Origin: an uncultured Acidobacteriota bacterium
GTDB lineage: Bacteria > Acidobacteriota > Vicinamibacteria > Vicinamibacterales > UBA2999
Direction: 5' to 3'
Assembly: GCA_963721715.1 (NCBI GenBank)
Contig: CAVRKI010000001.1
Span: forward strand, 53,824-117,823
Length of the DNA: 64,000 bases
Under the pieces are notes generated by a model that worked only from the letters and a program-made list of their open reading frames with translations, did no database searches and was not told the origin of the DNA. This document shows, one piece after another, positions 2,813 to 61,409 of the stretch. The translations under genes were made by a program, and so were the position numbers. How positions within the stretch are numbered: position 1 is the first letter of the stretch; each line of letters begins with the position of its first letter.

Positions 2813-2840
2813 GTCTTGGGTCTTGGGTCTTGGGTCTTGG
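2813..2840. repeat. heptamer tandem array (GTCTTGG)x4, family A
   Basis: Four exact tandem copies lie in the spacer between the SYLF start and the DUF1501 stop. Confidence 0.9.
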
Positions 2841-2900
2841 CGGGCCAACCCGCGGCCGGCGGTTGCCTTCAGACGGTTCCTTCTTCTGCCTTCTGCCTTC

Positions 2901-4161
2901 CTACAGCACCGCCGGTGCACCCGCGCGGAAGTCCGCGCCCAGGATCGACACCGAATTGCCGCCCAGCCAGGTATCGATGATCGGCGCGTAGACGGAGCGG
3001 AAGTCGGTTTCCCACTTCACGTCGCCACCGCTGTTCTCGAGCGTCGGGTTCGCGGGATCTGGACTGAGGTTCGGCGCGGTGCCGTACAACCCGCCGCGCA
3101 CCAGCCCACCCATCAGCATCATCACGCCGCCAGCGCCGTGGTCGGTACCCTGGCTGCCGTTCTCGCTGATGCGCCGCCCGAACTCGGTGTACACCAGCAC
3201 GAGCGTGGAGTTCAGCATGCCCTGGGCCTGGAGGTCGTCGTAGAACGACTTCAGCCCGTCGTTGAGGGTCGCCATCAGGTTGAAGTACGAGCCCCTGATT
3301 CACACCCTGCCCGGCGTGCGTGTCGTAGCCGCCGGTCTGGACCCAGAACACCTTGGTGCCGATCCCCTTGTTCATCGAACCGGCGACCGCCTGCAGCGCC
3401 TGGGCGAAGCCGTTGTTCTGATAGGCCACGGCGGGACGGTACGTGGCCACCGTCGCGACGCGATCGAGCGTGCCGAGCGCGGCCTGCGTCGTGGCATTCA
3501 CGAACGCCAGGTGCGGGCGATCCACGGGCAGGTGCGACGAGATGCGCGCCTGCGCCGTGCGCTCGAAGACGGCTTCGGTCGCGCTGTTGGGGCTGGCAAA
3601 GCTGTAGGCGGCAGGGCTGGTGATCGACGGCACGCCGACCAGCCGCCCCATCAGCGGACGCGGCGTTTCGCGCTGCGTGTTCCACGCGACCAGCGGATCC
3701 ACCGGCTGCGGCAGCGAGTCGAGATAGCGACCGAGCCAGCCGGTGCCCTGCGAGTTGCCGGGATTCGCGGTGCCCCAGATGTCGAAGCCGGTGAAGTGCG
3801 AGCGGCTCTGGTTCTCGTAGCCGGTGCGCTGGATGACGGCGAGGCGGCCGGCGTCGAACACGTTCTTCAGCCCGGTGAGCCGCGGATGCAGCCCGATCTC
3901 CGCGCCGCCGCGGTCGCGCCCGATCTGCAGGACGCTGCCGGCCGGCACCGCAATCGTCGGCCGGCGCGTGTAGTAGTTCGCGTCGCGGTACGGGATCACC
4001 GTGCTCAGCGCGTCGTTGCCGCCGCTCAGGTAGACGACCACCAGGTTGCGTGACGGCACACCCTGCGCGAACGCGATGTCGCACAACACCTGCGGCGCCG
4101 CGAACCCGAACGTGAACGCGGTGACTCCGCCTCGGACGAACGTGCGTCGGGAAAGGTTCAT
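2901..4161 (-). pseudogene. DUF1501 domain protein (Tat signal), one frameshift
   Basis: ORF 2869..4161 opens MNLSRRTFVRGGVTAF and runs to GGYDTHAGQG. The C-terminal third continues in ORF 2901..3275 (SYFNLMATLNDGLKSFYDDLQAQG..TDHGAGG). The frames join at the C4 run 3292-3295 if one extra base is removed. Confidence 0.85.
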
Positions 4162-5616
4162 GACGGTCGCTGACGTCGAACTGATATTCCCCCGCGCCGA
4201 CGATGAGGCGCGCGGCGCCGGCGACCTTGGTGTTCAGCTGCGCATCGCTGCCGGTCCACGAGATGCCGGCCCTCAGATAGTCCAGGACCGCCAAGTAGCC
4301 GTCGCCGGTGAAGCCCGCATTCTGGAACCGCTGCATCAGGAATTCCAGCACCCGCTCCGGCGACTGCCGGTACGGCTGCGCCTCGCGGGCCAGGTTGAAC
4401 TTCTGGTTGGCGGCCAGCGTCGCCGCGAAGTTGATGCGCGACAGCATCGACGCCGTGGAGAACCACTCGGCGGCGAGGGCCCAGCCGTTCACGTCTGGCG
4501 GCTCGTAGAGCTGCTGCCCCATGTTCGTGAGCGGCGTGATCGCGCTGTCCACCGACAGGCCGCGCCACCCCGTCTCCTTGATCGCGCGCACCGTGAACTC
4601 CGCCGGCCACGAGTAGTGGCGGAACACGTTGGCGCCGCTCAGGAACTGTTCCGAGAGCAGCAGGCGCCGCAGCATCGCCTTGATGCTGTAGTTGCTGGAC
4701 AGATAGGCCTGGGCCACCTCGTTGATGAACCCTTCGTCCGGTGCATCGACGTCGTTGACGAAGTATTGATAGAGCTTCGTCGCCAGGCGGCGGGCCGTCG
4801 CGGGATGCCGCGCCAGCGCGTCGATCAAATCCAGCCCGTCCTGCATGCCCTGCGCCGCCGGCCGCGCGGGGATGGTGCGGCCGCCACCCGGATAGATCTC
4901 GAAGGTGAACTCCTTCGCCGTCGGGTCGTGCTGGGCCTGGTTGTAGACGAAACGGTAGTAGCTCGTCACCTCGTTGGCGCGGTCACCCGCCAACTCGAGG
5001 TTCCAGCCGGTGAAGACGCGAGCCGCGGCATAGACATCGGCCTCGGTGTAGTGGCCGATACCCGTCGTGAACAGCTCCATCAGCTCGCGCCCGAAGTTCT
5101 CCTGGGGGCGGGCGCGTACGTTGGTGCGGCCATCGAGCCACACGAGCATCGCCGGGTCCTTCGCCACTTCGACCAGCAAGATCGCGAAAGCTGCCGGTGC
5201 CCAGGTCGCGGAACAGCTGCACCTGACCGCGGAAGGCGCCGCCGACGTTCTGCGCCCGCGCGTCCATCATCTTCGTGCCGTGGACCGCGCCGAAGGTGCC
5301 GGCGACCTTGCTGTAGGCCGTGGCGAAGTGGTTGTGCCAGAAGAGCGCCATCTTCTCCTGCAGCGGACGACGCGTGTGCACCATGCGGAACAGCCAGCGC
5401 TGGCGCGCGTCGCCGATGACCGTGTCGGGAGAGAACTGGCCGCGCGTGGTGACGCCGACGTAGTCGGCCAGGCCAATCTTCGAGTCCACATCGTCGGGCA
5501 CCTGCTCGTAGTTGAGCAGCTGCTGGGCGAGGGACAGCGGGGTGAGGTCCGGCGTAGTAGGCCAGATCCTCGGGACTGGCCCCGAACCCCATGCGGCGAA
5601 GGATGTGCTCCAGCAT
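4158..5616 (-). pseudogene. DUF1800 domain protein, about 3 frame lesions
   Basis: Three pieces: MLEHILRRMGFGASPEDLAYYA (ATG 5616), ORF 4983..5501 (PLQEKMALFWHNHFATAY..GSFRD) and ORF 3275..5179 (LLVEVAKDPAMLVWLDG..GAGEYQF). Extra bases sit at about 5550 and 5180. There is no in-frame stop after EYQF, and the TGA of the ATGA junction (4158-4160) is in another frame. Confidence 0.8.
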
Positions 5617-5687
5617 GCGTGAACCCCAGACGATACTAGCTCGGCCGGAGATTCCGCACCGGTATTTCGAGCGTTGCCCGGAATTTC

Positions 5688-8400
5688 CTACTTCTGGGAA
5701 CCGGCCGCCGCGGGCGCCTGCCCCAGGCTCAGCAGATTGGCCATCAGCCGGAACGCGCCATCCGTGCCGGCCGGCAGCTGCCGCCACAAGCCCAGGCCGA
5801 CGTAGATCCAGCGTCCCTGGCCCACCTTGGTCTCGACCAGCGCGCCCCGCTTGGTGCCCTTGTTGTAGGCAAAGGGCTCGTCGAACTCGAGGAGGTCCTG
5901 CACCTGCGGATCCGCGTTGGCGGTGTCGAAGAAGTACAGCCCGCGCTCCTGCACCCATCCCATCCAGTCGGTCCGGCCGATGGCGTTGGGGGTGTTGAAC
6001 ACCGGGTGCGTCGGCTGCAGCAGGCGCACCTCGGCGTTCTCGTCGGTCACCCGCTCGCGACCCACCTTGCCGGGCACCGGCGCGTACTGCGCGTCGTTGA
6101 ACTCGAACTTGTTGTAGTTGACGATCACGGTGCCGCCGGCCTTCGCATAGTCGAGCAGCCGGCTGTTGTAGGCGCGGAGATCGAGCCGCCGCTCGTAGGC
6201 GCGGACTCCCGTCATCACGACGTCGTACTGTCGACAGGTCACCCCAGGCCAGCTCCTCGGAGCCGATCAGCGTGACCTTCACGCCCAGCTGCTCGAGCGC
6301 GGCCGGCACCTCGTCGCCCACGCCCATCACGTAGCCGACCGACAGGTTCGGCTTCACCGCCACGTCGAGCGCCTTGGCGGTGACCAGCGGTGAGACCAGC
6401 ACGTGGCGGCGGCTCGTGTGCGGGTACTCCACGAGCTGATACCCCTGCGCGAACGTCGCGGTGCCCTGACGCACCAGCGCCTTGATCGGGAAGGTCGATC
6501 CACCCGGCTTGGCCGCGGCCGACACCAGCATCGGCGAGGGCGGCACGTCGATGAGGAACCGGACCGTGATGGCCTCGTCTTCGCGCGAGAAGCTGACCGG
6601 CTGCGTCGCCGGCGTGGCGCGCCAGCCCTGGGGCAGTTCGAGCGTCGCCTCGCCGGTGGCCGCGCCCTTGGCGTGGTTCACCACCGTGACGCGCACGTCC
6701 TTGCGCGTGCCGCGCGCGTTCTGCGGCGTGGCACGAGTGGGAACAATCAGCGTCTCGGGACTGGCGGTGACGGCGAACGCGGGCACCACGTGCACTTCAG
6801 CACGTTTCTCACCGCTGAACAGATTGCCCTCCGACCGCGCCTGCACCGGCACGGTCACCGGGAACTCGACGCCGCCGACCGCCAGCGTGAACGTGGCGGT
6901 GAACGGCGTCGGACGGAACGGCAGGCCGAACGGCACGTCCGGGTCGAGCACGAACCGCGAGGCGTTGGTGGCATAGCGGAAGTGCGCCGCGGTCAGCCGT
7001 GCGTCGGCGGGGATGGTGCCGCCCTTCTCGGTGGCCTGGGCGAAGCCGCTCAGCGCGCGCGACTTCACCTCGACCGGCACCGTGCCGCGCGCCGCCGCAA
7101 TCAGCTGCACGCCCACCTGCTGCCCCGGCGTGACGACGCCATCGTCGGCGATGGCCTCGAGCCTGAGATCGGTGGCGGCGACCAGCGCCTTGATGAACTG
7201 CGATTCCTTCTGCGCCAGGCGGAAGTCGATCTCGAAGCGCGCCTGTTCGTCCAGGCCCATGCCGGCGAGCGCCGCGCGCAGCTCGCGCACGGCGGTGAGG
7301 CCCGCGGTGAGCGGCGGGACCGTGCCGGCGCTGCCACGCGCGCCCAGCTCGCGATGCGCGGTCTGCACGTGCCCGGCGATGGTCGCCAGCGCGGAGGTGA
7401 GCGCGGCGGGCGGCGTGGCGCCGGCGTAGGCGGCCAGCGAGCCGAGGCTGACGTCGACGCCGTCGAACGGATCCTTCTCGGTGCGATCGACGCCGTCAGC
7501 GAGCACCGTGTCGCGCAAGCGGTAGGCGCGGATGCTGCCCGGCCCCATGGTGCCGCCGTCGCCCGGAAGCGGCAGCAGCTGCGACATGCCCTGGCACTTG
7601 TGCATGCTGCGCGCTTCGCCCGACAGCTCGTTGTAGGTGCGTCCGAGCACGCTGTCATACTGCGCGCCGCCTTCGAACATCAGCGGCTTCGCCGCGCCGG
7701 GGCCGTTCAGCTGAATCGTGCGTCCCGCACCGGGACCGCCGGGGCCGCCGAAGCCGGCCGTGTAATAGAACTTCGACGCCTGCCAGGGGCGCAGCCCCTC
7801 GGCGATCTGTTCAGGGAACTGCGCCGGATCCGCCGCGGCGCGGAAGGCCTCGGCCGTGAGCCGCGACGAGGTCTGATGGTGCTGTCCGCCGCCCTCGCCG
7901 TCGAACACGAAGCCGACAATGACCTGCGGCCGGAGGGTGCGGATCATGCGGACGTAGTCGCCGAGGATCTCCTGCTTGCCCCACTTCTCCAGCGTCTCCT
8001 CGACGGAGAACGAGAACCCGAAGTCCACCGCGCGCGTGAAGTACTGTTCCGCGCCGTCGTAGCGATGCGCCGCCAGCAGCTCCTCGGTGCGCAGCACGGC
8101 GAGCGCCTCGAACAGTTCGGGGCCAATCTCGTTCTGCCCGCCTTCACCGCGCGTGGCGGTGACCAGCGTGGCCCGCATGCCCTTGCCGTGCCCGTAGTAG
8201 GCCAGCATCGCGTTGTTCTCGTCGTCGGGGTGCGCGGTGGTCATCATGAACGTGCCCACCGTGTCGAGCTTGCGGAGGGCGAGCTCGAGTGCGGGCACGC
8301 CGCGCAGCGCCGCGACTGGCTGCAACTGATGCTGCGCGGACGGCACGCTACCGATGGTGAGGATGAGAGCAACGGTGAGGGCGAGGGAGGCTGAGCGCAT
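5688..8400 (-). pseudogene. PIG-L/LmbE family deacetylase with C-terminal ThuA/GATase-like domain, one frameshift
   Basis: Signal peptide plus TTAHPDDE (ORF 5080..8400 from 8400). The C-terminal part is in ORF 5688..6242 (YDVVMTGVRAYE..). The junction ..AWGDLS|QYDVVMTG.. is restored by removing one base at about 6233. Confidence 0.8.
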
Positions 8401-8436
8401 GGGTTCTGAGTTCTAAGGTGCGGGGTTCCAAGGTTC
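8401..8436. repeat. degenerate heptamer array (RRGTTCY)x5
   Basis: GGGTTCT GAGTTCT AAGGTGC GGGGTTCC AAGGTTC, immediately upstream of the PIG-L start. Confidence 0.6.
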
Positions 8437-8460
8437 ATGTGCAGAGGGGCCAGGAATCGA

Positions 8461-8481
8461 GTGATCCCTGACCCCTGTTTC
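8461..8481. repeat. heptamer array family B (GTGATCC CTGACCC CTGTTTC)
   Basis: Same unit and same CTGTTTC end as the array at 22801-22842. Confidence 0.65.
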
Positions 8482-8505: not shown

Positions 8506-8533
8506 GAGCCTGAGGCCCGGAGCCTGGAGCCTG
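8506..8533. repeat. heptamer array (GAGCCTG)x4
   Basis: GAGCCTG AGGCCCG GAGCCTG GAGCCTG, ending 2 nt before the TonB receptor stop codon. Confidence 0.8.
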
Positions 8534-8535: not shown

Positions 8536-11400
8536 CTAGAACGTGAACTTGAAGCCGAGCTGGAACTGGCGCTGTTCGTAGCCGCCGGTGGGCACCAGCT
8601 GATCGGCCGACGTCGGCAGCGTGCCGAGCGGCACGCCGAGCGCGTTGGTGGCCACGTTGGCGTTGACGCCCGAGGTCTGCACGGTGTTGAAGATGTTCTT
8701 CACCTCACCGATGATCTCCGCCGCCGTGCTGCCGCGGATGCGGAACCGGCGCGAGTAGCGGAAGTCGACGTTGTAGCGCGCCGGCAGGTTCAGCGAGTTG
8801 CGGCTGACGCCGTCGGGACGATCGCTGGCCGTGGCGTCGTTGTTGATCTCGGTGACCGTGCGCAGGTTCACCGGGATACCGCTCGCGAACTGCAGCGCGA
8901 TGCCGAACACGTTGTCGTTCAGCAGCGTCCCCATCGCGCCTTCACGATCGAAGCGGGGCGTGGAGACGATGCTGCCACTGAAGGTGTGGCGCTGGTCGAG
9001 GATGTTCGGCCCCAGCTCGCGGTCGAGATTGGTCATGTCGGTGCGGCCGGCATCGCCCTGGACCGACAACACGCCGGTGATCGGCGCGTTGTCCTCGCTC
9101 TTGCCCAGCGTGTAGGCAAAGTCGAAGCCGAATGTGGGGCTGCGGCGCGTGAGCTGCAGGGTCATGTTCTTGTAGGTGGAGTCGCCGATCGACTGCGTCG
9201 AGTTGATCGCGTTGTAGCGCGGATCGACGCGCGTCGCGGCACTGATCGTCGGGCTGAAGATCGGGATGCCGCTCGGCGTCGAGCCGGTCGGGTTGATCAG
9301 ATTGATATTGGTGACGACCGGCAGGTTGTTGCCCTTGACGTAGGAGGCGCCCACCGAGACCGAGTAGCTGTCGCCCAGCTGGCGCTCGAACTGCACGTTG
9401 TTCTGCCACGAGCGCGCCACCTTGAAGTCCTGGTCCACGGTCCAGGCCACATTCGGCTGGGCGCCGGCGCCGGCGCTGAGCACGGCCGGGTACGACGGCG
9501 CACCCGCCTGGTTCGGCGTGAAGTTGGCCGAAGCCCGCGCGTTGGTGCCGTCGTTCTGCAACGCCTGCTCGTAGATCGCGTTCAGGGTCTGGTCGTACAT
9601 GATGCCGGTGTTGGCCCGCACCACCGAGCGGCGGTCCGAGCCGAGGGTCCACACCGCGCCGATGCGAGGCGCGAAATTGCTCTTCGACACCGGGAAGTCA
9701 CGCGAGGTCTCGACCGGCGCATTGGGATCGGCCTCGGGCACGCCGTAGAGGTCGTAGCGCACGCCGTAGAGAATCTTCAGGTCGGCGCCGACGCGCCAGT
9801 CGTCCTGCACGAACAGCCCGTACTGGCTGGTGTTGTATTCGAGGTTGGGCAGGCCGAAGTACTGCGTGAACGAGGTGTAGCCGAGTGGGTTGCTGCCGTT
9901 CTGGGCCGCCTGGTAGGCCGCGATCGTCGGGAAGGTGTAGAGGGCCGCCGGCGCCGAGCGGCGCGTGTCGGCGACGAACTGCAGGTCGACACCCGCCTTC
10001 AGCGCATGATCGCCGCGCAGCAGCGTCGTGCTGTTGTTCAGCTGCAGCACGTCCTGCGTGAAGCCGAAGCCGGCGTCGGAGATGGCGGCGATGGGCCCGC
10101 CGAACTGGGCGACGTTGGGGATGTTGATGGCCGGGCCGGTGCCCGACGCGGCGTTTGGCACGCGCGACTGCGCGCGGGTGGCGTACTGGAAGCGGAACTC
10201 GTTCAGCATGCCCGAGCCGATGGTCGAGATCAGCTGGGCGCCGGTGGAGTGCTGCCGGTCGGCGAAGTCGTTGGCGCGCTGCACCGAGAGGATGCCGCCG
10301 CCCACGTTCGCGGTGATGAAATTGTCGAAGAACATGTAGCGCACGGACAGCCGGTTCGCCTGGTTGATCTGGTGGTCGATCTTGCCGATCGCGAACTCGG
10401 TGTTCAGCCCGCGCGGCTGGTACTGCGGCTCGGTGAGCCCGAGCGCCGCCTGGTTCGCCGGAGTAATCGTGATGACGCTGAGGCCCGAGAGGTCGCGCTC
10501 GGTGTGCTCGTAGCCGCCGAAGAAATGGGTCTTGTCACGAATGATCGGGCCGCCCAGGTCGAAGGTGTAGACGTTGACGTCGGTCGGGGGCTTGTCCGCC
10601 GTCGCCGACGCATAGAACGGCGTCGCTACCATCGACTGGCGCTGCATGCGGTAGCTGCCCTGGCCGCGGTAGGTGTTGGTGCCCGAGGGCGTGATCGCGT
10701 TGTAGACCAGGCCCATCGTCTGGCCGAACTCCGGCGCGTAGCCGGTGGTGACGACCTTCACCTCGCGAATCATCACTTCGGACATCGGCATCTGCCGCAG
10801 GCCGGCGCGATCCTTCTGCGTGTTGTTGCTGCCGTCCACCTGGTAGTTCACGCGCAGCAGCGCGCCGTTGGCGGTGAGGCGGGGCACGCCGAACTCGTTG
10901 GTCTCGAAACCGACCACGCCCGGCTGCAGCAGGGCGAAGTTGTAGGGGTTGCGCGAGGTCAGCGGCAGGGTCTTGATCTCGGCCTCGCTCAAGGTGCGGC
11001 CCTGCTCGATCTTGCCGAGGTCCACCAGCGGCGCCGCCGCGGTGACCGTGACGGTCTCCTGCAGAGTGCCGACGGTCAGTTGGAAGTTGATGACCGCCGT
11101 CTGGCCCGCGCTCAGCGTCACGCCGCTCTGCTCGAACTTCTTGAAGCCCTGCAATTCGGCCGCGACCCGGTAGCGACCCAACTGCAGCAACGGCGCGCGG
11201 TACAACCCGCTTTCGTTCGTGACCACGGCGCGGGTGTCGCCCGTGTCGAGATTCGTCACGGTCACCGTGACGCCGGGCAGCACGGCGCTCTGTTCGTCAA
11301 CCACGGTGCCTTCAATGGTGCCGTTGATGGCCGTGGACTGCGCCGCGGCCGGAAGCCCGGTCGCCAAGGCAAGAATAACTGCGAAGAATATGCGGAGCAT
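8536..11400 (-). CDS. TonB-dependent receptor with N-terminal carboxypeptidase-regulatory-like domain
   Basis: Intact 954-aa ORF with a signal peptide and a CarboxypepD_reg module (INGTIEGTVVDEQSAVLPGVTVTVTNLDTGDTRAVVTNESGLYRAPLLQLGRYRV). A long barrel ends GFKFTF. AGGAGG lies about 10 nt upstream of ATG 11400. Confidence 0.9.
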   Translation of the reverse strand: MLRIFFAVILALATGLPAAAQSTAINGTIEGTVVDEQSAVLPGVTVTVTNLDTGDTRAVVTNESGLYRAPLLQLGRYRVAAELQGFKKFEQSGVTLSAGQTAVINFQLTVGTLQETVTVTAAAPLVDLGKIEQGRTLSEAEIKTLPLTSRNPYNFALLQPGVVGFETNEFGVPRLTANGALLRVNYQVDGSNNTQKDRAGLRQMPMSEVMIREVKVVTTGYAPEFGQTMGLVYNAITPSGTNTYRGQGSYRMQRQSMVATPFYASATADKPPTDVNVYTFDLGGPIIRDKTHFFGGYEHTERDLSGLSVITITPANQAALGLTEPQYQPRGLNTEFAIGKIDHQINQANRLSVRYMFFDNFITANVGGGILSVQRANDFADRQHSTGAQLISTIGSGMLNEFRFQYATRAQSRVPNAASGTGPAINIPNVAQFGGPIAAISDAGFGFTQDVLQLNNSTTLLRGDHALKAGVDLQFVADTRRSAPAALYTFPTIAAYQAAQNGSNPLGYTSFTQYFGLPNLEYNTSQYGLFVQDDWRVGADLKILYGVRYDLYGVPEADPNAPVETSRDFPVSKSNFAPRIGAVWTLGSDRRSVVRANTGIMYDQTLNAIYEQALQNDGTNARASANFTPNQAGAPSYPAVLSAGAGAQPNVAWTVDQDFKVARSWQNNVQFERQLGDSYSVSVGASYVKGNNLPVVTNINLINPTGSTPSGIPIFSPTISAATRVDPRYNAINSTQSIGDSTYKNMTLQLTRRSPTFGFDFAYTLGKSEDNAPITGVLSVQGDAGRTDMTNLDRELGPNILDQRHTFSGSIVSTPRFDREGAMGTLLNDNVFGIALQFASGIPVNLRTVTEINNDATASDRPDGVSRNSLNLPARYNVDFRYSRRFRIRGSTAAEIIGEVKNIFNTVQTSGVNANVATNALGVPLGTLPTSADQLVPTGGYEQRQFQLGFKFTF

Positions 11401-16329: not shown

Positions 16330-16385
16330 GGGTGGATATTACTGGAGGGAACGGGAAGCCGGTACCCGGGGTCCGGAAACAGCGG

Positions 16386-16409
16386 ACTCAAGACTCAAGA
16401 CCCAAGACC
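16386..16409. repeat. heptamer array, family A reverse complement (ACTCAAG ACTCAAG ACCCAAG ACC)
   Basis: Lies between the oxidoreductase start and the ada stop. Confidence 0.8.
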
Positions 16410-17564: not shown

Positions 17565-17594
17565 GGGGCTGGGGCTTGAGGCTTGAGTCCTGGG
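17565..17594. repeat. heptamer array family A (GGGGCTG GGGCTTG AGGCTTG AGTCCTG)
   Basis: In the divergent spacer between ada and the acylase gene. Confidence 0.7.
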
Positions 17595-17622: not shown

Positions 17623-20107
17623 GTGAGACGGTTGCTGTTTCGCGGCATCATCGTGGTGCTGGCCGCGCTGGTCCTGGTGGTGCTGGCGGGTGGGCTCTAC
17701 CTGCGATCCGAACTGCGCGCCAGCCTGGCCGCGCTCGAAGGCACGCGGCCGCTTGCGGGGCTGAGCGCGCCGGTCACGGTCGCCCGCGACGCGCTGGGCG
17801 TGCCCAGCCTGACGGGCGCGTCTCGCGTGGATGTCGCGCGCGCGCTGGGCTTCGTGCACGCGCAGGATCGTTTCTTCCAGATGGATCTGCAGCGGCGGCA
17901 GCCGGCGGGCGAGCTGGCCGCGCTCGTCGGGACCCGCGCGTTCGAGGTGGACGCGCAGGCTCGCATCCATCGTTTCCGTCATGTGGCGCGACAGGCCTAC
18001 GAGCGAGCGGATCCGGAATGGAAGGCGCTGCTCGACGCCTACGCGAGCGGCGTCAACGCGGGGCTCGCGCAACTGAGCGCGCCACCGTTCGAGTACCTGA
18101 TGCTCCGCACCGCCCCGGAGCCGTGGAAAGCCGAGGACTCGATCCTCACCGTCCTCGCGATGTTCGTGTCGCTCCAGGGACGCCAGGCGACATTCGAGCA
18201 GACGAACCAGCAGCTGCGCGCTGCGCTCCCCGACGCGATGTTCCGCTTTCTCGCCGAGGCCGGGTCCACCTGGGACAGTCCTGCGGCGGGCGATCCGCTC
18301 ACCCGGCCGCCGGTGCCCGGCCCGGAGGTGATCGACCTGCGCGGCCTGCAGGCCTCCGCGCCGCCCGACCCGGCCGCCACGCTCGCCAGGAACCATATCG
18401 TCGAACCGCCTTGCCGCACGCAGATCTTCAGCCTGTGCGTCGAGCCGTCGAGTGAATCCGCCGCGACCATCGGCTCGAACAACTGGGCGGTGGACGGCGC
18501 GCACAGCGCCAATGGCGGCGCCATCGTCGCCAACGACATGCACCTCGGGCTCGGCGTGCCGAACATCTGGTACCGCGTCTCGATGACCGCGCCCGATCCG
18601 GGCGATCCGCTGCAGCCGCTGCGGCTGGTCGGCGTCACATTGCCCGGCGCTGCCGGTGCTGGTGGTCGGCAGCAACGGTTCGGTGGCGTGGGGCTTCACC
18701 AACACCGGCGGTGACTGGAGCGACCTCGTGCGGATCGACGCCGACCCGCGCGATCCCACCCGCTACCTCACGCCCGATGGGCCGGTGCCCTTCGAGCTGA
18801 CGGAGGAAGCGGTCGCCATCAAGGATGCCCCCGCCCGCAGCATCACCGTCCGCTCCACCATCTGGGGCCCCATCGTCTGGAAGGATCACCAGGGCCGCGA
18901 GTACGCGCAGCACTGGGTGGCGCACGACCCGGACGTGGTGTCGAGCGACCTCAGCCGGCCGGAACGGGTGCGGACGGTGGACGAGCTGATGGTGGCGGTG
19001 GCCGGGATCGGCATGCCGAACCAGAACGTGGCGATTGCGGATCGGTCGGGGCGCATCGCCTGGACCGTGGGCGGGGCGCTGCCCCGTCGTCGTGGATTCG
19101 ATGGCTTCACCACCGAGTCGTGGGCGGACGGCACGCGGGGGTGGGACGGCTATCTCGTCGGCGGCGGAGTTCCCGAAGATCGTCGATCCCGAACTGGGCC
19201 GCATCTGGACGGCGAACGCGCCGGTCGTCGACGGCGTGAGGCTCGGCCTGATCGGCGATGGCGGCTACGCGGACGGCATCCGCGCGCGCATCATCCGCGA
19301 TCGCCTGATGACGATCGACCGTGCCACGCCGCGGCAGATGCTGGACGTGCAACTCGACAACAGCGCGCTGTTCCTGGATCGCTGGCGGGCGCTGCTGCTT
19401 GACGACGCTCGACGGCGCCAACGCGAAATCTCCCGTCGATCGCGCGTCGTCGCGAGCCGAGTTCCGCCGGCTCGTGGACACGACGTGGACAGGAAAGGCC
19501 TCGCCGGATTCGGTGGCCTATCGCCTGGTGCGCACGTTCCGCGCCGAGGTCGTGCGATCGGTGCTGACCTTCGTCACCGCTCCCGCGCGGGCGCAGGATC
19601 CGTCGTTCGACTACTCGCGCTCGATGCGCACGGAGGGACCAGTGTGGGCGCTCGTCTCGCACCAGCCGATGCACCTGCTCGACCCGCGCTTTGCCTCGTG
19701 GGACGCGCTGCTGCTCGATGCCGTGGACACCTCGATCGCCCAGCTCGCCGAGGGTGGCGCGCTCGGCCGATCGCACGTGGGGCGAGGTCAACCGCGCGCG
19801 CATCCTGCACCCGCTGGGATCCGCCGTGCCGCTCATCCATCGCTGGCTGAATATGCCGGAGGATCCACTCCCCGGAGACGTCTACACGCCGCGCGCGCAT
19901 TCGCCGGGCACGGGCCCGTCCGAGCGCATGGTGGTGTCACCCGGTCACGAAGAGGAAGGCATCCTCCACATGCCGACCGGACAGAGCGCGCATCCGCTCT
20001 CGCCCTACTTCGGCACCATGCATCGCGCGTGGGTGAACGGCGATGTGGTGCCATTTCTGCCCGGTCCAGCACAGCACACGCTGACGTTGACGCCGGGGGA
20101 GCAGTGA
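17623..20107 (+). pseudogene. penicillin acylase (Ntn hydrolase) family protein, 4 frameshifts
   Basis: GFVHAQDRFFQMD, the Ntn nucleophile site GSNNWAV, and LPG|LPVLVVGSNGSVAWGFTN. Pieces 17623.., 18656.., 19035.., 19321.. and 19691..20107 join when single bases at about 18649, 19157, 19397 and 19765 are removed. Confidence 0.85.
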
Positions 20108-20147
20108 GGTCTCGAGTCTTGGGTCTTGGGTCTTGGGCTTGGGGCTG
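20108..20147. repeat. heptamer array family A (GTCTTGG x3 core, then GCTTGGG)
   Basis: Starts right after the acylase TGA, in the convergent spacer with purK. Confidence 0.85.
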
Positions 20148-22800: not shown

Positions 22801-22842
22801 ATCGATCCTGATCCCTGATCCCTGATCCCTGATCCCTGTTTC
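22801..22842. repeat. heptamer array family B (CTGATCC x4 exact, plus flanking variants)
   Basis: ATCGATC CTGATCC x4 CTGTTTC. Bracketed by the 8-nt direct repeat GTTTCCGG (22780-22787 and 22838-22845). Confidence 0.9.
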
Positions 22843-27375: not shown

Positions 27376-28422
27376 GTGGCACTGCCGACGCTGATCAACA
27401 CGCGCAGTCCGCTCGCCGCACCCTCGGCGCAACGGGCGCTCCTCGAGTCGCTGCCGCTGGCGCGGACGTTCGAGTCGGCACTGAACGAGGCCGGGCACCA
27501 GCCGCTGACGCGCGTCACGGCGCGCGTCCTGCAGGTGAATCTCGGCAAGCGCTGCAATCAGGCGTGCCATCACTGCCACGTGGACGCCGGCCCCGACCGC
27601 ACCGAGGTGATGCCCGACGAGGTGGTGGACGCGGTGCTGGAGGTGCTGGCACGGTCGGACATCCCCACGCTCGACATCACGGGCGGCGCCCCCGAACTCC
27701 ACCCGCGCTTTCGCGACATCGTCGCCCGCGCGCGCGGGATGGGACGGCAGGTGATGGATCGCTGCAATCTCACCATCACGACGCTGCCGAATTATGCCGA
27801 CCTGCCGGAGTTCCTGGCCGCGCACGGCGTGGAAGTCGTGGCCTCGCTCCCCTCGTACGCGGCGTCGCAAACCGACCGTCAGCGCGGCGAGGGCGTGTTC
27901 GAGGCCTCGCTTGGCGCGCTGCGTCACTTCAACGCGCTCGGTTATGGTCGCCCTGGCAGCGGCCTGGTGCTGAACCTCGTCACCAATCCGGTTGGCGCCT
28001 TCCTCCCCGCGAACCAGGCGTCGCTCGAACGCGACTGGACGCGCGAGCTGAAGCGGCGCTACGACATCACCTTCAATCGCCTGTTCACGATCACCAACAT
28101 GCCGATCAGCCGCTATCTCGAATGGCTGGAGCACTCCGGTAACGTCGCCGGCTACATGGAGAAGCTGGTGCAGGCGTTCAATCCGGCGACGGTGGACGGC
28201 CTGATGTGCCGCGACACCATCTCGGTGGGCTGGGACGGACGCCTGTTCGATTGCGACTTCAACCAGATGCTGGACCTGCCCGTGGACCGGCGTGGGCCGC
28301 GGACCATCACGGACCTCTTCGCTGCTCCTGCCCTGCTCTCGCACCCCGTGGTCACCGGCCCGCACTGCTTTGGCTGCACCGCCGGCGCCGGGTCAAGCTG
28401 CGGCGGATCGACGACGGCCTAG
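27376..28422 (+). CDS. arsS: arsenosugar biosynthesis radical SAM protein ArsS
   Basis: GTG 27376. CxxxCxxC motif (CNQACHHC), DITGGAPELHP, and the Cys-rich tail HCFGCTAGAGSSCGG. Confidence 0.8.
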   Translation: MALPTLINTRSPLAAPSAQRALLESLPLARTFESALNEAGHQPLTRVTARVLQVNLGKRCNQACHHCHVDAGPDRTEVMPDEVVDAVLEVLARSDIPTLDITGGAPELHPRFRDIVARARGMGRQVMDRCNLTITTLPNYADLPEFLAAHGVEVVASLPSYAASQTDRQRGEGVFEASLGALRHFNALGYGRPGSGLVLNLVTNPVGAFLPANQASLERDWTRELKRRYDITFNRLFTITNMPISRYLEWLEHSGNVAGYMEKLVQAFNPATVDGLMCRDTISVGWDGRLFDCDFNQMLDLPVDRRGPRTITDLFAAPALLSHPVVTGPHCFGCTAGAGSSCGGSTTA

Positions 28423-28452
28423 ACTCAAGACCCAGGCTCAAGCCCCAAGCTC
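28423..28452. repeat. heptamer array, family A reverse complement (ACTCAAG ACCCAGG CTCAAGC CCCAAGC)
   Basis: Starts immediately after the arsS TAG. Confidence 0.7.
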
Positions 28453-44350: not shown

Positions 44351-44369
44351 CAGGGATCAGGGATCAGGA
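44351..44369. repeat. heptamer array, family B reverse complement (GGATCAG x2) running into the SD
   Basis: GAGACCGC [A GGATCAG GGATCAG GA] GAGACCGC AATG. An 8-nt direct repeat flanks the array. Confidence 0.75.
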
Positions 44370-49753: not shown

Positions 49754-52486
49754 TCAGCGTTCGACGGAACCCGCCGTGCGTCGCAGGTGATCGAAGACGT
49801 TGACCAGCAACACCATGGACTCGCGGCGCGCCTCCTCCGATCGGATCACCGCAGCCCGCGAGGAATCCGGCGCGGGGTCCAGCCAGAGCACGCCTGGAGG
49901 AATCCGCATCCAGACGCGGGGCTTCTCGGCGACGAACGTCTGCCCGAGCACTCGATACGGCACCGACATGACGACCTCTTCGGATCGGCCATACATCAGG
50001 TCCTTGTACCACTCCACCCATTCGGCGCCCTCGGTCGACACCTGCCATCGCCCGCCGGGGCCCGGGAAGGGTTGCACGTAGACCTCGGCGCGCCCGGAGT
50101 CGTCCGCGGTGTAGGCCAGCCAGCGGCCATCGGGCGAGAACTCGCCGGCCAGCTCGTTCGCCGGCGTTCCCAGCAGGACGCTCGGCGGGCCCGGGCGCCA
50201 CGAACCCTGGGAGGTGGCCTCCATCGGCAGCACCATCAGATCCGAGCCGGTGCCGCGCCGTTCCTCCGTGAAGAGGAGGTAGCGGCCGCTCGGATGCCAT
50301 TCGACCGGCAGCTGGTGGTTGCGGCTCGTCGTCAAGCGCTGCGGTTCGCCGGTGCCATCGGCACGATGCACGAAGAGGTTGAAGGTCCCGGCATCAGCGC
50401 GCCACGAGCCGTATGCGATGTAGCGGCCATCCGGCGACCAGATCGCCGACCAGTCGTTGTCAGGATGGAAGGTGACCCTCGACATCCGGTCGCCGGCGAG
50501 GTCGTAGACCCAGATGTCCGACTGCGCCCCCTCGCCAATCACCAGCAGCGCCCGCGTGCCGTCGGGCGAGAAGCGCATCTCCTGGTACTCGACGGGTACG
50601 CTGCGAATGGATTCGAACTGGCCGGCAAAATCCATCCACTGCAGGACACGCTGGGGGTTGCGAGCGCGCCGGTAGGCCAGCAGCCCGGTGTCGGAGACCG
50701 AGAACTGCGCCGTGCCACTGGTCGTCGCATAGGCGACGTCTTTCACGACCGGAGTCGCCGGGCCGGCGAGTTCGAGGCGGGTGCGATCGAATGCGGCCGC
50801 GAACAGCTGCCCATCCCGCACGTACAGCACGTGACCGCTGTTGACGTAGCGGCCGTAGAGCCCGCCCTTGTGGATGACTTTCCGCGGCCCGCCGGCCAGG
50901 GGCTGAACCTCGATCGTGCCTTCCCGTGACGCGCTGCGGTCGTCGTGCGACGTGAACAGCACATGGGTCCCACCCGGCAGCACCTGCGGCCACCGGTGCG
51001 TCGTTTCCCCTTCACTGTGCATCGTGGTCACCGGCGTGACCGGCCCACCTTCGGCAGGCACCCGGAAGAGCGGACCCTCGGGTTTCGGGGCGAACACGAT
51101 GGTGTCGTCAGGTGCCCACGCTCCGCCGCGCGCTTCTTCGACCGTGGTGATGGGCGTGACCGTCCCACCGGCGAGCACGACTTTCAGCAGTCGGCCGCCG
51201 GCGAAGAATCCGATGGATCCGCCGTCCGGCGAGAAGAATGGCGCGTACGCCCCTTCCGTCCCGGCGAGCGGCCTGGCGTTCAACTCGTCGAGTCGTCGGA
51301 GATACAACTGCCATCGACCGCCCGCCGAGCCGCGCGCGATGAAGACCATGGCCCGCCCGTCCGGCGACAGCACGACGGTGGGGCCAACCCAGTTGAGGCC
51401 CGCCCATCCCGCGCCGGCGAGAGTGGTCTCGCCGCCGCCATCGACGCCGAGACTGAGCAACGCCAGGTCCGCGGACGCCCGACGCGGCGTGGGCCAGAAC
51501 CAGGCCCCGGCCGCGAGGACGCCGAGTGCCAGTGCCAGCCACGGGACCGTGCGACGCCATCGTCGCGGGTCGGCGACGGATCGGTCGTGAGCGACGCTGG
51601 CCGGCGTCGGTCCAGGGCCGGACACCGGCGTCGAGAGCAGGACGCGCGCCTCACCGATGTCGCGCAGCCTCGTGCGGGCATCGCGCTCGAGACACCGCCG
51701 GAGCAGCATGACGATGCCAGGCGGGATGTCCGCCGGGAGCGCGCTGTAGTCGGGTTCGCGTGTCAGGACCGCCGCCAGCAGGTCGGTGACCGAGTCGCCG
51801 TCGAACGGTTGCCGCCCGGCGAGCATCTCGTAGACCACCACCCCGAACGCCCAGATGTCCGAGCGCTTGTCGACGGCCCGCCCACGCGCCTGCTCCGGAC
51901 TCATGTACGCGGCCGTCCCGAGGATGACGCCTTGCATCGTCATCGCCGGCGCAGTGATGGCCGGCGCACTCGACCGGTCTGCCGTCTGCCGGTTGCCGGC
52001 TGCCGGTTCCGCCGCTTTCGCCAACCCGAAATCCAACACCTTCACCGTGCCGTCGGGCCGCACCTTGATGTTCGCGGGCTTGAGATCGCGATGGATGATG
52101 CCGGCGTCGTGCGCGGCCTCCAGCGCCTCCGCAATCTGGCGGGCGATCGGGAGTGCTTCGTCCAGCGGGATGGGCCCGCGCGCGATCCGCTGTGACAGAT
52201 CGTCGCCGTCAACGAGCTCCATCACCAGCGCGGTGCCCTCGGACGAGAGCTCGAGCCCGTAGACCTGCGCGATGTTCGGATGGTTGAGTGACGCCAGCAC
52301 CTCGGCCTCGCGCTGGAAGCGCGCCAGTCGATCGGGGTCGCCCGACACGTCCGCGGGCAACACCTTCAGGGCCACTTCGCGCTTCAGCTTCGCGTCCCGG
52401 GCGCGATAGACCTCTCCCATCCCACCGGCGCCGAGCATGCCGGTGATCTCGAACGCGCCGAGCCGCGTGCCTGGGGTGAGGCCCAT
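49754..52486 (-). CDS. Ser/Thr protein kinase with TM segment and TolB-like beta-propeller domain
   Basis: GAGGMGEVYRARD, HRDLKPANI, then WD40-like/TolB repeats (FSPDG..). Intact 910 aa. Confidence 0.9.
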   Translation of the reverse strand: MGLTPGTRLGAFEITGMLGAGGMGEVYRARDAKLKREVALKVLPADVSGDPDRLARFQREAEVLASLNHPNIAQVYGLELSSEGTALVMELVDGDDLSQRIARGPIPLDEALPIARQIAEALEAAHDAGIIHRDLKPANIKVRPDGTVKVLDFGLAKAAEPAAGNRQTADRSSAPAITAPAMTMQGVILGTAAYMSPEQARGRAVDKRSDIWAFGVVVYEMLAGRQPFDGDSVTDLLAAVLTREPDYSALPADIPPGIVMLLRRCLERDARTRLRDIGEARVLLSTPVSGPGPTPASVAHDRSVADPRRWRRTVPWLALALGVLAAGAWFWPTPRRASADLALLSLGVDGGGETTLAGAGWAGLNWVGPTVVLSPDGRAMVFIARGSAGGRWQLYLRRLDELNARPLAGTEGAYAPFFSPDGGSIGFFAGGRLLKVVLAGGTVTPITTVEEARGGAWAPDDTIVFAPKPEGPLFRVPAEGGPVTPVTTMHSEGETTHRWPQVLPGGTHVLFTSHDDRSASREGTIEVQPLAGGPRKVIHKGGLYGRYVNSGHVLYVRDGQLFAAAFDRTRLELAGPATPVVKDVAYATTSGTAQFSVSDTGLLAYRRARNPQRVLQWMDFAGQFESIRSVPVEYQEMRFSPDGTRALLVIGEGAQSDIWVYDLAGDRMSRVTFHPDNDWSAIWSPDGRYIAYGSWRADAGTFNLFVHRADGTGEPQRLTTSRNHQLPVEWHPSGRYLLFTEERRGTGSDLMVLPMEATSQGSWRPGPPSVLLGTPANELAGEFSPDGRWLAYTADDSGRAEVYVQPFPGPGGRWQVSTEGAEWVEWYKDLMYGRSEEVVMSVPYRVLGQTFVAEKPRVWMRIPPGVLWLDPAPDSSRAAVIRSEEARRESMVLLVNVFDHLRRTAGSVER

Positions 52487-58637: not shown

Positions 58638-58680
58638 CAGGATCCTCGGGGAAAGCGGCCAGGCGGGGGCGAGCGGATTG

Positions 58681-58686: not shown

Positions 58687-58699
58687 TCTCCGAGACCAC

Positions 58700-59891: not shown

Positions 59892-59923
59892 CGCTGAGCG
59901 CGGACGAGGGCGGCGCTCAGACA

Positions 59924-60293
59924 GGGGCTCGCGCTCGGTAAAGGCGGCGCTTGCGCGCCGTAGGGACGAACAGGGCGGCGCTTGCGCGCCGTAGGAAAGA
60001 CCGACGGGGCGGCGCGTTGCGCCGTAGGGAAAGACGGGCCTCGCTGCGCTCGGTAGGCGGCACTGCGTGCCGTAGGGAACAGACGGGGCGGTGCTTCGCA
60101 CCGCAGCAGGCCTGCTGACTCGCTGGTCATCCTACCGAGCGAGGCGACCCGACGGCTGCCCGAAAACCTACATCGCGCCGGCGAGGCCTACCGCTCGCAG
60201 AGCGGCCCGGACGTCCTACCGAACGCAGTGAGGCCCTTACCGCCCGAAGGGCGGCCGGTCTTCCTTACCGAGCGCAGCGAGGCCTTGCTCTAC
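59924..60293. repeat. REP/BIME-like cluster: about 6 forward and about 7 inverted GC-rich hairpin units tagged by GTAGG / CCTAC
   Basis: Forward GTAGG at 59960, 59991, 60024, 60053 and 60072, each preceded by a hairpin such as CGGCGC-TTGC-GCGCCG. Inverted CCTAC/CTTAC at 60131, 60167, 60187, 60215, 60236, 60264 and 60289. The symmetry centre CAGCAGG|CCTGCTG is at about 60110. Confidence 0.8.
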
Positions 60294-60736
60294 GCTCCGA
60301 ACTGCCGCAGGTGATGGTCCGTGTGCCGCGCCATCAGCACGCCGTACTCCTTGTGCGACAGGTTGCCGAACGCCGGATGGGGCACGAGCTGGCTGTCGGA
60401 CGTGAGGTGACCAAGCCGCTCCATCCAGGCGTGGAAGTCGTGCTGTTCGGGTCGGAGCTCGGCGGTGGTCACGCGCGCAATCAGTTCGGGCGCCGTCGGG
60501 GCGCTCCTTGGAATTGGCAGGAGATACACGACCAGTTGCCGCAGCGGCGGATAGCGGAACGGCAGGTTCTTCGGCTTCACCGCCAGCTCCCCGGTCGCCA
60601 TGCGGAAGCTGTCGTTCAGGTGGGCAAGCATGCCGGCGACCGTCATCTTGCCCCATTGAGGTCGCGAGGCCGTGGTCAGCCGATCGACGCGGTCCTGCAT
60701 GGACTGGCGGACAGCGGGATCCCATATGGTTGGCAT
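60290..60736 (-). CDS. DinB-superfamily protein (DUF1569-like)
   Basis: ATG 60736 inside ORF 60290..61159. MPTIWDP..MLAHLNDSF..HTDHHLRQFGA, 148 aa. Confidence 0.75.
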   Translation of the reverse strand: MPTIWDPAVRQSMQDRVDRLTTASRPQWGKMTVAGMLAHLNDSFRMATGELAVKPKNLPFRYPPLRQLVVYLLPIPRSAPTAPELIARVTTAELRPEQHDFHAWMERLGHLTSDSQLVPHPAFGNLSHKEYGVLMARHTDHHLRQFGA

Positions 60737-60753
60737 TGGGGGATAGTAAGGCA

Positions 60754-60830
60754 GGCGGCGCTTCCGCGCCGTAGGATTGAAGGCCTCGCTTCGCTCGGTG
60801 GGAACGAGGGCCTCGATTCGCTCCTGTAGA
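60754..60830. repeat. three further REP-like units
   Basis: GGCGGCGCTTCCGCGCCGTAGG, GGCCTCGCTTCGCTCGGTGGG and GGCCTCGATTCGCTCCTGTAGA, in the 101-nt divergent spacer. Confidence 0.75.
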
Positions 60831-60837
60831 GAGGGAC

Positions 60838-61317
60838 GTGATGAATCAAGATGTGCTGGACGCCATTCGAACGTTGCTCGACACGGAGCGGGTGCTGAGC
60901 CTGGCCGTGGTCGTCGATGGCGAACCTGAAGCGGCCCTGCTGCCCTTTGCCGTCCGCGAGGACTATGGCGCGCTGCTCGTGCAGGCGTCGGCGCTGGCTC
61001 GCCACACGCGAGGACTGCACCCAGGCGCCACCGTCGGCGTCCTCGTGCACGCCAGCGACCACCCCGACCGCGATCCGATGCAGCTGCCGCGGTTGACCAT
61101 ACAGGCCACCGTGCGACCCTTCGAACGCTCCACCGAGCCATTCGCGGTGGCCGCGGCACGGTTCACGGCACGATTCCCTGCCGCGGCCGTCACGCTCGAC
61201 CTCGGCGACTTCACGCTCTACGAACTCACCCCGGGCCGCGGCCGTTACGTGGAAGGCTTCGCGCGCGCGTTCAACATCGGGCCGGAGACGTTTGGGGAAT
61301 TGAAGGCGGGGGACTAG
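60838..61317 (+). CDS. pyridoxamine 5'-phosphate oxidase-like FMN-binding (split-barrel) family protein
   Basis: Intact 159-aa ORF with good codon bias. The family call (HugZ/PNPOx-like) is tentative. Confidence 0.65.
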   Translation: MMNQDVLDAIRTLLDTERVLSLAVVVDGEPEAALLPFAVREDYGALLVQASALARHTRGLHPGATVGVLVHASDHPDRDPMQLPRLTIQATVRPFERSTEPFAVAAARFTARFPAAAVTLDLGDFTLYELTPGRGRYVEGFARAFNIGPETFGELKAGD

Positions 61318-61321
61318 AGGT

Positions 61322-61342
61322 GGGGCTTGGGGCTTGGGGCTG
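61322..61342. repeat. heptamer array family A (GGGGCTT GGGGCTT GGGGCTG)
   Basis: Starts 5 nt after the stop at 61317. Confidence 0.85.
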
Positions 61343-61353
61343 ACAGCCGGCCT

Positions 61354-61409
61354 CTGATTCCTGATTCCTAGTTCCTGATCCCCGATCCCTGGTCCCCGAT
61401 CCCTTCCCT
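61354..61409. repeat. heptamer array family B, 8 units (CTGATTC x2, CTAGTTC, CTGATCC, CCGATCC, CTGGTCC, CCGATCC, CTTCCCT)
   Basis: Strict 7-nt phase over 56 nt, upstream of ATG 61448. Confidence 0.85.

Follow-up and report, generated by a model that had tools for sequence, protein, structure and literature searches.

The spacers between genes in a 64,000-nucleotide (nt) stretch from an uncultured Acidobacteriota bacterium of the Vicinamibacterales (contig CAVRKI010000001.1, positions 53,824 to 117,823; the window hereafter) hold about 13 short tandem arrays with a 7-nt unit. Judged by their sequence, these arrays are the acidobacterial case of a known class of intergenic heptanucleotide repeats, which has been described in Xanthomonas, in Nostoc/Anabaena, where it is known as short tandemly repeated repetitive (STRR) sequences, and in Beggiatoaceae. 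New are the phylum, the companion arrays with an 8-nt unit, the many different units that obey the same rules although half of them lack a tract of three guanines (G3), and the vocabulary of units found within a genome. The arrays very probably belong to the slippage-prone heptanucleotide simple sequence repeats (SSRs). On balance, we favour an account in which slippage drives arrays that are confined to spacers and in which their paired form makes a hairpin at transcript ends; the transcript-end role of this predicted hairpin, taken by itself, is proposed only tentatively.

Arrays were detected with Tandem Repeats Finder (TRF) and a self-match scan at lag 7, and a single threshold was applied to every period. 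The survey pool consisted of the window and 83 related loci, 1.48 Mb altogether, of which 11.7% was called non-coding; L001, L056 and similar names are labels of related loci in this pool. No contig on record was found for the protein of the window itself, and relatives were used in its place. A genome scan was run with the protein of the TonB-dependent receptor gene of the window (8536-11400, minus strand), which has hundreds of homologues of 78-94% identity labelled as metagenome-assembled genomes (MAGs) of Acidobacteria or Vicinamibacterales; the scan gave 80 loci, nearly all from MAGs of Vicinamibacterales/Acidobacteriota. A second, independent set comprised 290 kb of metagenome DNA fetched via a different gene. 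Gene boundaries were set by an ad hoc seven-state hidden Markov model (HMM) of codon usage that was trained on the window, and the start codons are approximate.

The unit length is sharply 7 or 8 nt. In the 1.48 Mb, period 7 gave 73 arrays in non-coding and 3 in coding DNA, period 8 gave 21 and 1, and period 14 gave 17 and 0, while each of the other periods gave 0-7 arrays, with only 0-1 for periods 4-6; shuffled spacers of the same pool gave none. The density of period-7 arrays is 0.42 per kb in non-coding DNA against 0.0023 per kb in coding DNA, an enrichment of about 180-fold. The independent 290 kb showed the same preference, with 14 arrays of period 7, 15 of period 8, 4 of period 14 and 0-2 of any other period. 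At least one period-7 array is present in 34 of the 84 loci, and some loci hold 5-7 within 22 kb. The window itself, with a G+C content of about 69% and a non-coding share of about 3.5 kb (5.5%) by the HMM, contains five period-7 arrays of at least three copies and none of periods 5, 6 or 8-12 in the lag scan at the same threshold. Nine of its roughly 21 spacers carry arrays. A preliminary description of this DNA had placed each of 12 listed sites between genes, and all 12 fall within the 5.5% called non-coding or at gene junctions; the intergenic enrichment that it had suggested looking for in relatives is what the survey found.

The arrays are positioned and oriented relative to genes. Nearly half of the non-coding period-7 arrays (41 of 87) lie within 10 nt of a gene end. 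Of the arrays that are nearest to a stop codon, 34 are G-rich, 17 neutral and 15 C-rich on the sense strand; of those nearest to a start codon, 12 are C-rich, 8 neutral and one G-rich on that strand. Read along the forward strand, 27 of the G-rich arrays are nearer to the left flank and 2 are nearer to the right. The G/T-rich strand reads away from the neighbouring gene, and this rule is kept in convergent spacers, which have no start codon. Two arrays of the window are exceptions, namely 28423-28452, which is C-rich on the sense strand of the gene that it follows, and 17565-17594 relative to the amidase gene beside it. Arrays are present in 64 of the 475 spacers with a gene 3' end and in 3 of the 106 divergent ones, though the latter are longer (Fisher p = 0.001). 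A Shine-Dalgarno core was seen in 2 of 15 genes behind C-rich arrays versus 113 of 577 other genes, which is no difference, and the start calls are too rough for a firm result. We also considered pairing with 16S rRNA, in which TGATCC units would match GGAUCA just 5' of the anti-Shine-Dalgarno sequence; judged by eye, this idea was set aside as inapplicable to the other unit families.

Many arrays come in pairs. A reverse-complement partner lies within 300 nt for 32 of 91 period-7 arrays and 14 of 26 period-8 arrays, against 4 and 0 in controls with shuffled units. All 30 of the 30 G/C-skewed pairs have the same order from 5' to 3': G-rich arm, loop, C-rich arm. In a typical paired spacer, (CCGGGAT)n follows the stop codon and (GGATCCC)n precedes the next start codon or a convergent stop, and the loop between them is unrelated in sequence and 20-60 nt long. 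The hairpins predicted for L015 have folding energies of -58 and -63 kcal/mol (z = -3.4 and -6.75). In the window, the only convergent complementary pair lies at 8446-8481, with about two units of the GGGATCA family in each arm (GGGGCCAGGAATC / GATCCCTGACCCC), in a spacer that folds with z = -2.2; on the transcribed minus strand it is predicted to form a 14-bp hairpin with a 4-nt loop (GGGGUCAGGGAUCA / UGAUUCCUGGCCCC). The site 8461-8481, which had been listed as an array of its own, is the 3' arm of this hairpin. A scan of window positions 1-60000, made in three 20-kb blocks, for hairpins followed by a T-run returned 22 sites where about 19.6 were expected; every one is inside a gene, no spacer has any, and matches to sigma-70-type promoters in the same range were at or below chance.

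The arrays turn over much faster than the genes around them. The flanking genes of relatives are 82-91% identical at the DNA level, yet orthologous spacers differ in copy number and often in the units themselves (L001, L003, L056, L094 and L096). The array upstream of the Ada-type gene has about three decayed units in the window, about 17 in L001 and 11 of a different family in L056; that upstream of the Ysc84-family gene is confined to relatives whose protein identity is 82% or higher, each of which has a different version. The clearest case of a length change comes from L001 and L002, two contigs from different samples that are 99.8% identical over 6.76 kb and whose only length differences are one 1-nt indel and exactly one CCCCAAG unit; the suggestion of the preliminary description that these are slippage-prone spacers thus has one clean case in its favour. 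The 87 arrays have 52 distinct consensus units, all non-palindromic, and the two commonest, GGGATCA and GGGATCC, account for seven arrays each (14 of 87). The window uses GGGTCTT, GGGGCTT, GGGATCA, GAGCCTG and GGCAGAA. Spacers of the same locus share units, with up to one mismatch allowed, in 36.8% of comparisons, those of different species in 8.3% and composition-matched random heptamers in 2.9%. Decay of units was compared between gene-proximal and distal edges in 70 arrays and no robust asymmetry was found (one position with p = 0.018, uncorrected); thus, extension in a particular direction is neither supported nor excluded.

The 8-nt arrays are part of the same phenomenon as the 7-nt arrays. 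They use related units, for example GGTTCTGG beside GGTTCTG, and more than half of them are paired. A long example occupies the spacer past the DAO gene in L084-L093 (e.g. L084 3318-3557), where about 22 copies of GGTGCAAC/GGTGCACG/GGTGCAAG extend over about 170 nt from 1 nt past the stop codon. In six of the eight contigs examined, a run of Ns lies inside this array, which indicates that such arrays break short-read assemblies. An attempt to read population polymorphism from ten contigs with an identical TonB protein (P0110) was abandoned, because the 8-nt array is interrupted by scaffold Ns and its lengths are artefactual; of the comparisons between contigs, only that of L001 with L002 could be used.

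STRRs, reportedly introduced by Mazel et al. in 1990 as short tandemly repeated repetitive heptamers of cyanobacteria, are defined by specific units (CCCCAGT and others) in heterocystous cyanobacteria, and the STRR1 unit CCCCAGT is the complement of the Nostoc GGGGA(C/T)T repeat. The acidobacterial arrays resemble them in being intergenic heptanucleotide tandem arrays with several unit families per genome in both orientations; units and taxon differ, which makes STRRs an analogue and not a group to which our arrays belong. The closest description is that of Rehm et al. 2015 (PLoS One, PMC4692102), who treat the GGGAATC repeats of Xanthomonas (65% GC) and the GGGGA(C/T)T repeats of Nostoc sp. 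PCC 7120 as one class. According to that study, the repeats range from 2 to more than 20 copies, most often about 4, are biased to non-coding DNA and place their G-rich strand within 50 bp after a stop codon, where it is the coding strand, or before a start codon, where it is the non-coding strand. They are under-represented between divergent ORFs and form 70-75 convergent pairs per Xanthomonas genome that are able to fold as stem-loops; their length varies between related genomes (Xcc versus Xac), no link to gene function or mobile elements was seen, and G-quadruplex (G4) formation was shown in vitro for Xanthomonas and Nostoc units. The acidobacterial arrays share the tandem 7-nt unit, the non-coding bias, the orientation of the G-rich strand, the depletion in divergent spacers, the convergent pairs and the length variation, and GGGATCA and GGGATCC resemble the GGGNATC of that class. 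They differ in taxon (Acidobacteriota, Vicinamibacterales), in having many units per clade and several per genome with no single dominant one, in the 8-nt arrays, which in some lineages are about as common as the 7-nt ones, and in that about half of their units, known here from sequence alone, have no G3 tract and behave in the same way. The preliminary description had named STRRs as the only established analogue known to it; the analogue as such is correct, and Rehm et al. group Nostoc with Xanthomonas. It had also stated that nothing of this kind was described for a GC-rich genome, which is contradicted by Xanthomonas, with the same rules for position, orientation and inverted pairs.

Two further reports describe related repeats. 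As summarised in PMC4679880, Mrazek, Guo and Shah (PNAS 2007; Mrazek 2007 below) found heptanucleotide repeats to be the most abundant class of long SSRs in most prokaryotic genomes and proposed that the polymerase contacts a stretch of about 7 nt, so that slippage would be favoured; long SSRs with 5-11-nt units are, in the introduction of Rehm et al. (PMC4692102), commoner in large, high-GC genomes of non-pathogens. The acidobacterial arrays are likewise heptanucleotide and non-coding, and their second peak at 8 nt and their strict pair polarity lie outside the description of Mrazek 2007 as given in that summary. MacGregor 2015 (PMC4679880) reported TAACTGA direct repeats of 2 to 43 copies in marine Beggiatoaceae, some Cyanobacteria and Bacteroidetes; these are intergenic and often stand a few nt upstream of starts without a Shine-Dalgarno sequence, and cold-shock proteins (CSP), S1 and CsrA were the candidate readers. 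That unit is single, AT-rich, spread across phyla and mostly found before starts, whereas the acidobacterial arrays have many units and mostly follow stops; one inverted repeat was reported for TAACTGA versus 35-54% paired arrays here. None of the papers that our literature search returned connects heptamer repeats with Acidobacteria, and the search brought up no later functional work (since 2016) on the repeats of Xanthomonas or on STRRs; no Rfam family matches the window.

The individual arrays of the window vary in quality. By TRF and the lag-7 scan, 2813-2840, 8506-8533, 16385-16409, 20108-20146, 22807-22838, 44351-44368, 61321-61341 and 61354-61404 are clean, and 8401-8436, 17565-17594 and 28423-28452 are degenerate. 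TRF found period-7 arrays at nearly all sites of the preliminary description, and these are true tandem arrays; of its 12 sites, all given as strict, the three just named are degenerate and 8461-8481 is a hairpin arm, and it had missed the array at 2883-2900, the strand rule relative to genes and the hairpin architecture of convergent pairs. Its remarks that the units are non-palindromic, fall into a few recurring families, occur in both orientations and abut gene ends agree with our consensus units and with arrays such as those at 20108 and 28423, which stand directly past stops.

At the left end, 2813-2840 consists of four GTCTTGG units with 100% matches on the plus strand, which is the G/T-rich one. 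It lies 21 nt upstream of the start (2791, minus strand) of a Ysc84-family gene, on whose sense strand it reads CCAAGAC, and just upstream of a conserved motif, TGCTACCTTAG, that is similar to an extended -10 box. The conserved motif CTGCTA(A/C)C(G/T)TAG is found 7-9 nt upstream of the Ysc84-family ATG in the window (2792-2812) and in L001, L056 and L094-L106; it persists in relatives of about 78% identity and above, a Shine-Dalgarno sequence is absent at this place, and the motif looks like an extended -10 box (TGnTAnnnT) in the position that a leaderless mRNA would have it. At 2883-2900, 2.6 copies of CTTCTGC, which is (GAAGGCA)n on the minus strand, begin right after the stop codon of a DUF1501 gene on that strand. 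Irregular, degenerate GGGTTCT/GAGTTCT/AAGGTTC units on the plus strand at 8401-8436 adjoin the start codon (8400) of a PIG-L-family gene (minus strand), and the same unit family makes an 11-copy array in another spacer of L056. The array at 8506-8533 (GAGCCTG, four copies, 71% matches, plus strand) ends 2 nt short of the stop codon of the TonB-dependent receptor gene.

Three arrays surround the Ada-type and amidase genes. At 16385-16409, 3.4 copies of GACTCAA/GACCCAA on the plus strand read GGTCTTG/AGTCTTG on the sense strand, the minus strand, and begin 7 nt past the stop of the Ada-type gene. The degenerate GGGGCTG/GGGCTTG/AGGCTTG units at 17565-17594 (plus strand), of which TRF accepts only 2.1 clean copies, lie in the divergent spacer between the Ada-type gene and a penicillin-amidase gene and are C-rich on the sense strand of the former; the orthologous array of L001 has about 17 copies of CCCAAGC/CGCAAGC. 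The array at 20108-20147 (plus strand) starts at the first base past the amidase stop codon in a convergent spacer, and its approximately five units are GGTCTCG, AGTCTTG, GGTCTTG, GGTCTTG and GGCTTGG, followed by GGCT; at the same position, L056 has eight CTCAAGA/CCCAAGA and five CCGGCAG units.

Further to the right, 22801-22842 carries 4.6 copies of CCTGATC, exact at 22807-22838, whose complement is (GGGATCA)n on the minus strand; the array is C-rich on the sense strand, and from position 22838 it is 6 nt to the GTG start (22845) of a gene for an M16 peptidase. The degenerate CTCAAGA/CCCAGG/CTCAAGC/CCCAAGC units at 28423-28452, G-rich on the minus strand, begin with the first base beyond the stop codon of a radical-SAM gene (27376-28422, plus strand); TRF calls period 13 here, which shows an indel in the array. 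Two co-directional genes of the DUF1592 and DUF1552 families are separated by a 40-nt spacer with 2.6 copies of CAGGGAT on the plus strand (44351-44369), and the last unit merges into AGGAGAG, which is similar to a Shine-Dalgarno sequence. Two arrays share the last spacer: three copies of TGGGGCT at 61321-61342 (plus strand), 3 nt past a stop codon (61317) and G-rich on the sense strand, and seven to eight copies of CTGATTC/CTGATCC/CCGATCC at 61354-61409, G-rich on the minus strand, C-rich on the sense strand and upstream of the start (61448) of an NHL-repeat gene. The G-rich arm again comes first and the C-rich arm second, the two arms are not complementary, and this spacer folds worse than 200 of 200 shuffles (z = +2.43).

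A heptamer-like array of five units (CCGTCTG/CCGGTTG/CCGGCTG; CTGCCGN) also lies inside an ORF, at 51974-52008 within 49754-52486 (minus strand). By its kinase motifs this ORF is a Ser/Thr kinase gene, the array encodes the low-complexity segment AAEPAAGNRQTADRS, and its unit family, CTGCCGT, makes intergenic arrays in L056 and L094.

The assembly of the window calls for some care. Comparison with orthologues by tblastn showed at least seven frameshifts in about 9 kb, with four frame changes in the penicillin-amidase gene (17623-20107) and one each in the PIG-L (5688-8400), DUF1501 (2901-4161) and DUF1800 (4175-5588) genes. This suggests an indel-prone, probably long-read assembly rather than real pseudogenes; thus, exact copy numbers in the window are not fully trustworthy. 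Comparable arrays are also found in over 100 further contigs, which come from other samples and mostly bear contig names given by short-read assemblers, so that the phenomenon is independent of the assembly of the window. Among the relatives, the MAG records of L005, L031, L046, L055, L083, L027 and L078 are titled 'uncultured Bifidobacteriaceae', 'Acidimicrobiia' or 'Gemmatimonas' despite an acidobacterial locus and are probably mislabelled or mis-binned.

We propose the following explanation for the arrays. Strand slippage would create and continually remodel them, and template switching between two arms may contribute. Since a gain or loss of 7 or 8 nt causes a frameshift, they would be tolerated nowhere but outside ORFs. 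When an array has a partner, the arms of the transcript are predicted to fold into a long G+C-rich hairpin directly past the stop codon. For comparison, a repetitive extragenic palindromic (REP) sequence has the form of an imperfect palindrome, about 35 nt (20-40 nt) long, carries a GTAG motif and is spread by REP-associated tyrosine transposases (RAYTs); the REPs and bacterial interspersed mosaic elements (BIMEs) of enterobacteria and pseudomonads are extragenic and lineage-specific, lie just past stops in co-directional and convergent spacers, in direct and inverted clusters, and their RNA hairpins protect 3' ends. By analogy with REP/BIME in enterobacteria, the hairpin of the paired arrays may terminate transcription without a U-tract and/or protect mRNA 3' ends. 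The lack of canonical terminators (hairpin plus T-run) in the spacers scanned counts in favour of such a role. The likeness is a functional one and concerns the paired arrays only; unlike REP/BIME, the acidobacterial units are of 7-8 nt, non-palindromic and strictly tandem. Lone arrays, which are the majority in the window, would be strand-skewed, unstructured expansions or remnants with no demonstrable function.

Several observations weigh against this explanation. Most arrays of the window are unpaired, and they fold no better than shuffles, or even less well (z from +0.5 to +2.4). These spacers fold poorly because lone arrays are strand-skewed, and thus the hairpin role does not apply to them. 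Slippage leaves the strict G-first polarity of the pairs unexplained, and a hairpin would have the same stability whichever arm came first. Nor does slippage that starts from random seeds explain the sharing of units within a genome. Finally, the arrays are patchy and many relatives have compact, array-free orthologous spacers, which means that the arrays are dispensable at any given site.

The likeliest alternative takes the arrays for purely neutral microsatellites without a function, which arise as by-products of slippage that favours steps of 7-8 nt. Position and orientation would then be what selection leaves over, because it forbids frameshifts in ORFs, G-rich mimics of Shine-Dalgarno sequences before starts and disturbance of divergent promoters. 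The very fast turnover, which leaves orthologous spacers unalignable, the patchy distribution among lineages with many array-free spacers, the functionally unrelated flanking genes, the unit-step polymorphism between the near-identical L001 and L002 and the lack of a clear asymmetry of unit decay at array edges are all consistent with it. However, such a filter does not account for the G-first order of 30 of 30 pairs or for an orientation rule that persists in convergent spacers, which have no start codon; sharing of units within genomes is 13 times the random-heptamer level, and the complementary arms of 35-54% of arrays need a copying process or selection for pairing. We hold a wholly neutral origin to be possible but doubtful.

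It is unlikely that the arrays are G4 elements as proposed by Rehm et al., in which four G3 tracts spaced by 7 nt form G4 DNA or RNA that modulates transcription or translation at gene boundaries. In terms of sequence and leaving folding aside, a run of at least three Gs is present in 46 of the 87 consensus units, and four or more G3 tracts are found in the window arrays at 2813 and 20108, on the reverse complement at 22807 and 61354, and marginally at 61321 and 17565. The resemblance of the commonest units, GGGATCA and GGGATCC, to GGGNATC and the in-vitro formation of G4 by Xanthomonas and Nostoc units (PMC4692102) point in the same direction. On the other hand, 41 of the 87 units have G runs of at most two (GGCTAGC, GGTATCC, GGCTACA, GGAATTA and GAATTCT, and in the window GAGCCTG and CTTCTGC), and these share the copy-number distribution (mode 3-4) and the orientation of the others, with a left-to-right ratio of 9:1 compared with 18:1 for G3 units. 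Units without G3 tracts thus follow the same rules, and G4 cannot be the general explanation; in paired arrays, moreover, the hairpins would compete with it.

Two proposals that involve a protein come next, and we regard both as quite unlikely. First, the arrays may mark transcript boundaries as tandem sites for a single-strand nucleic-acid-binding protein with a register of about 7 nt, for example a cold-shock-domain protein or another with an oligonucleotide/oligosaccharide-binding (OB) fold, S1, or Rho on the C-rich strand. Lone arrays have a strand skew and, by prediction, less structure than shuffles, which would make them accessible single strands; the sharp period of 7-8 nt and the unit vocabulary of each genome would also fit, and CspB of B. 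subtilis binds one heptamer per domain (reviewed in PMC4679880). Against this, no candidate protein was found, 52 units in 87 arrays with several families per genome would demand many or very loose specificities, and paired arrays would be double-stranded in RNA. Second, and more ambitiously, the arrays may be gene-boundary elements that are actively written or actively read in Xanthomonas, Nostoc and Vicinamibacterales alike through a lineage-specific trans-acting factor. This factor, which could be a binder of the OB-fold or cold-shock type or else an enzyme that lengthens the G-rich strand at its 3' end, would recognise or lay down units of 7-8 nt on single-stranded nucleic acid. Such a factor would account for the period of 7 or 8 nt, the genome-specific vocabulary and the invariant polarity from G-arm to C-arm, and a G-rich strand that leaves the gene on both sides would have the geometry of two head-to-head extensions; however, there is no direct support; no robust asymmetric decay was seen in 70 arrays and no candidate gene was found.

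That the arrays are parts or remnants of small mobile elements, either MITE-like (miniature inverted-repeat transposable elements) or REP/BIME-like, or else phase-variation switches, is highly improbable: although the arms of a pair look like terminal inverted repeats, the same units return at many sites of one genome and the window holds a separate REP-like cluster (59943-60284), the loops of same-unit copies are unrelated, the arms vary in length and reach the codons, no flanks or target duplications are shared, the units are non-palindromic, and no transposase (Y1 type included) or RAYT was found among the ten flanking genes scanned, while the neighbours (M16 peptidase, LysR regulator, radical SAM, amidase, Ada-type regulator and Ysc84) are unrelated and not surface antigens, and the arrays stand past stops or upstream of promoters, where at Ysc84 changes of unit would leave the -35/-10 spacing unaltered. 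A MITE, by contrast, has a conserved interior, terminal inverted repeats of fixed length and a target-site duplication, and a phase-variation SSR sits within an ORF or between the -35 and -10 boxes of a surface or virulence gene. On these grounds, MITE and REP/BIME were each rejected as the identity of the arrays, and the idea of a tiny mobile unit in the preliminary description finds no support. The cluster at 59943-60284 is itself REP/BIME-like, with G+C-rich hairpins (GGCGGCGCTTGCGCGCC) each followed by GTAGG in about five repeats at 31-49-nt spacing and then in inverted form (CCTACCG and hairpin); in one pair, the 19-nt arms show 100% complementarity across 210 nt, and the neighbouring ORF is DinB/DUF1569-like and not a RAYT.

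Slippage-driven arrays confined to spacers, with a putative hairpin at transcript ends where they are paired, thus remain the account that we favour. Repeats of this class have been on record for cyanobacteria since 1990 and for prokaryotes at large since 2007, and the class now extends to Acidobacteriota, a dominant but poorly studied soil phylum. The dozens of units, half of which are unable to form canonical G-quadruplexes and which nevertheless follow the same rules, are a natural experiment that argues against a general G4 explanation. Any mechanism must explain the period of 7-8 nt, the strand polarity and the paired-arm architecture. In practice, the arrays break short-read scaffolds and make spacers unalignable between close relatives, and they could serve as strain-typing markers in metagenomes.

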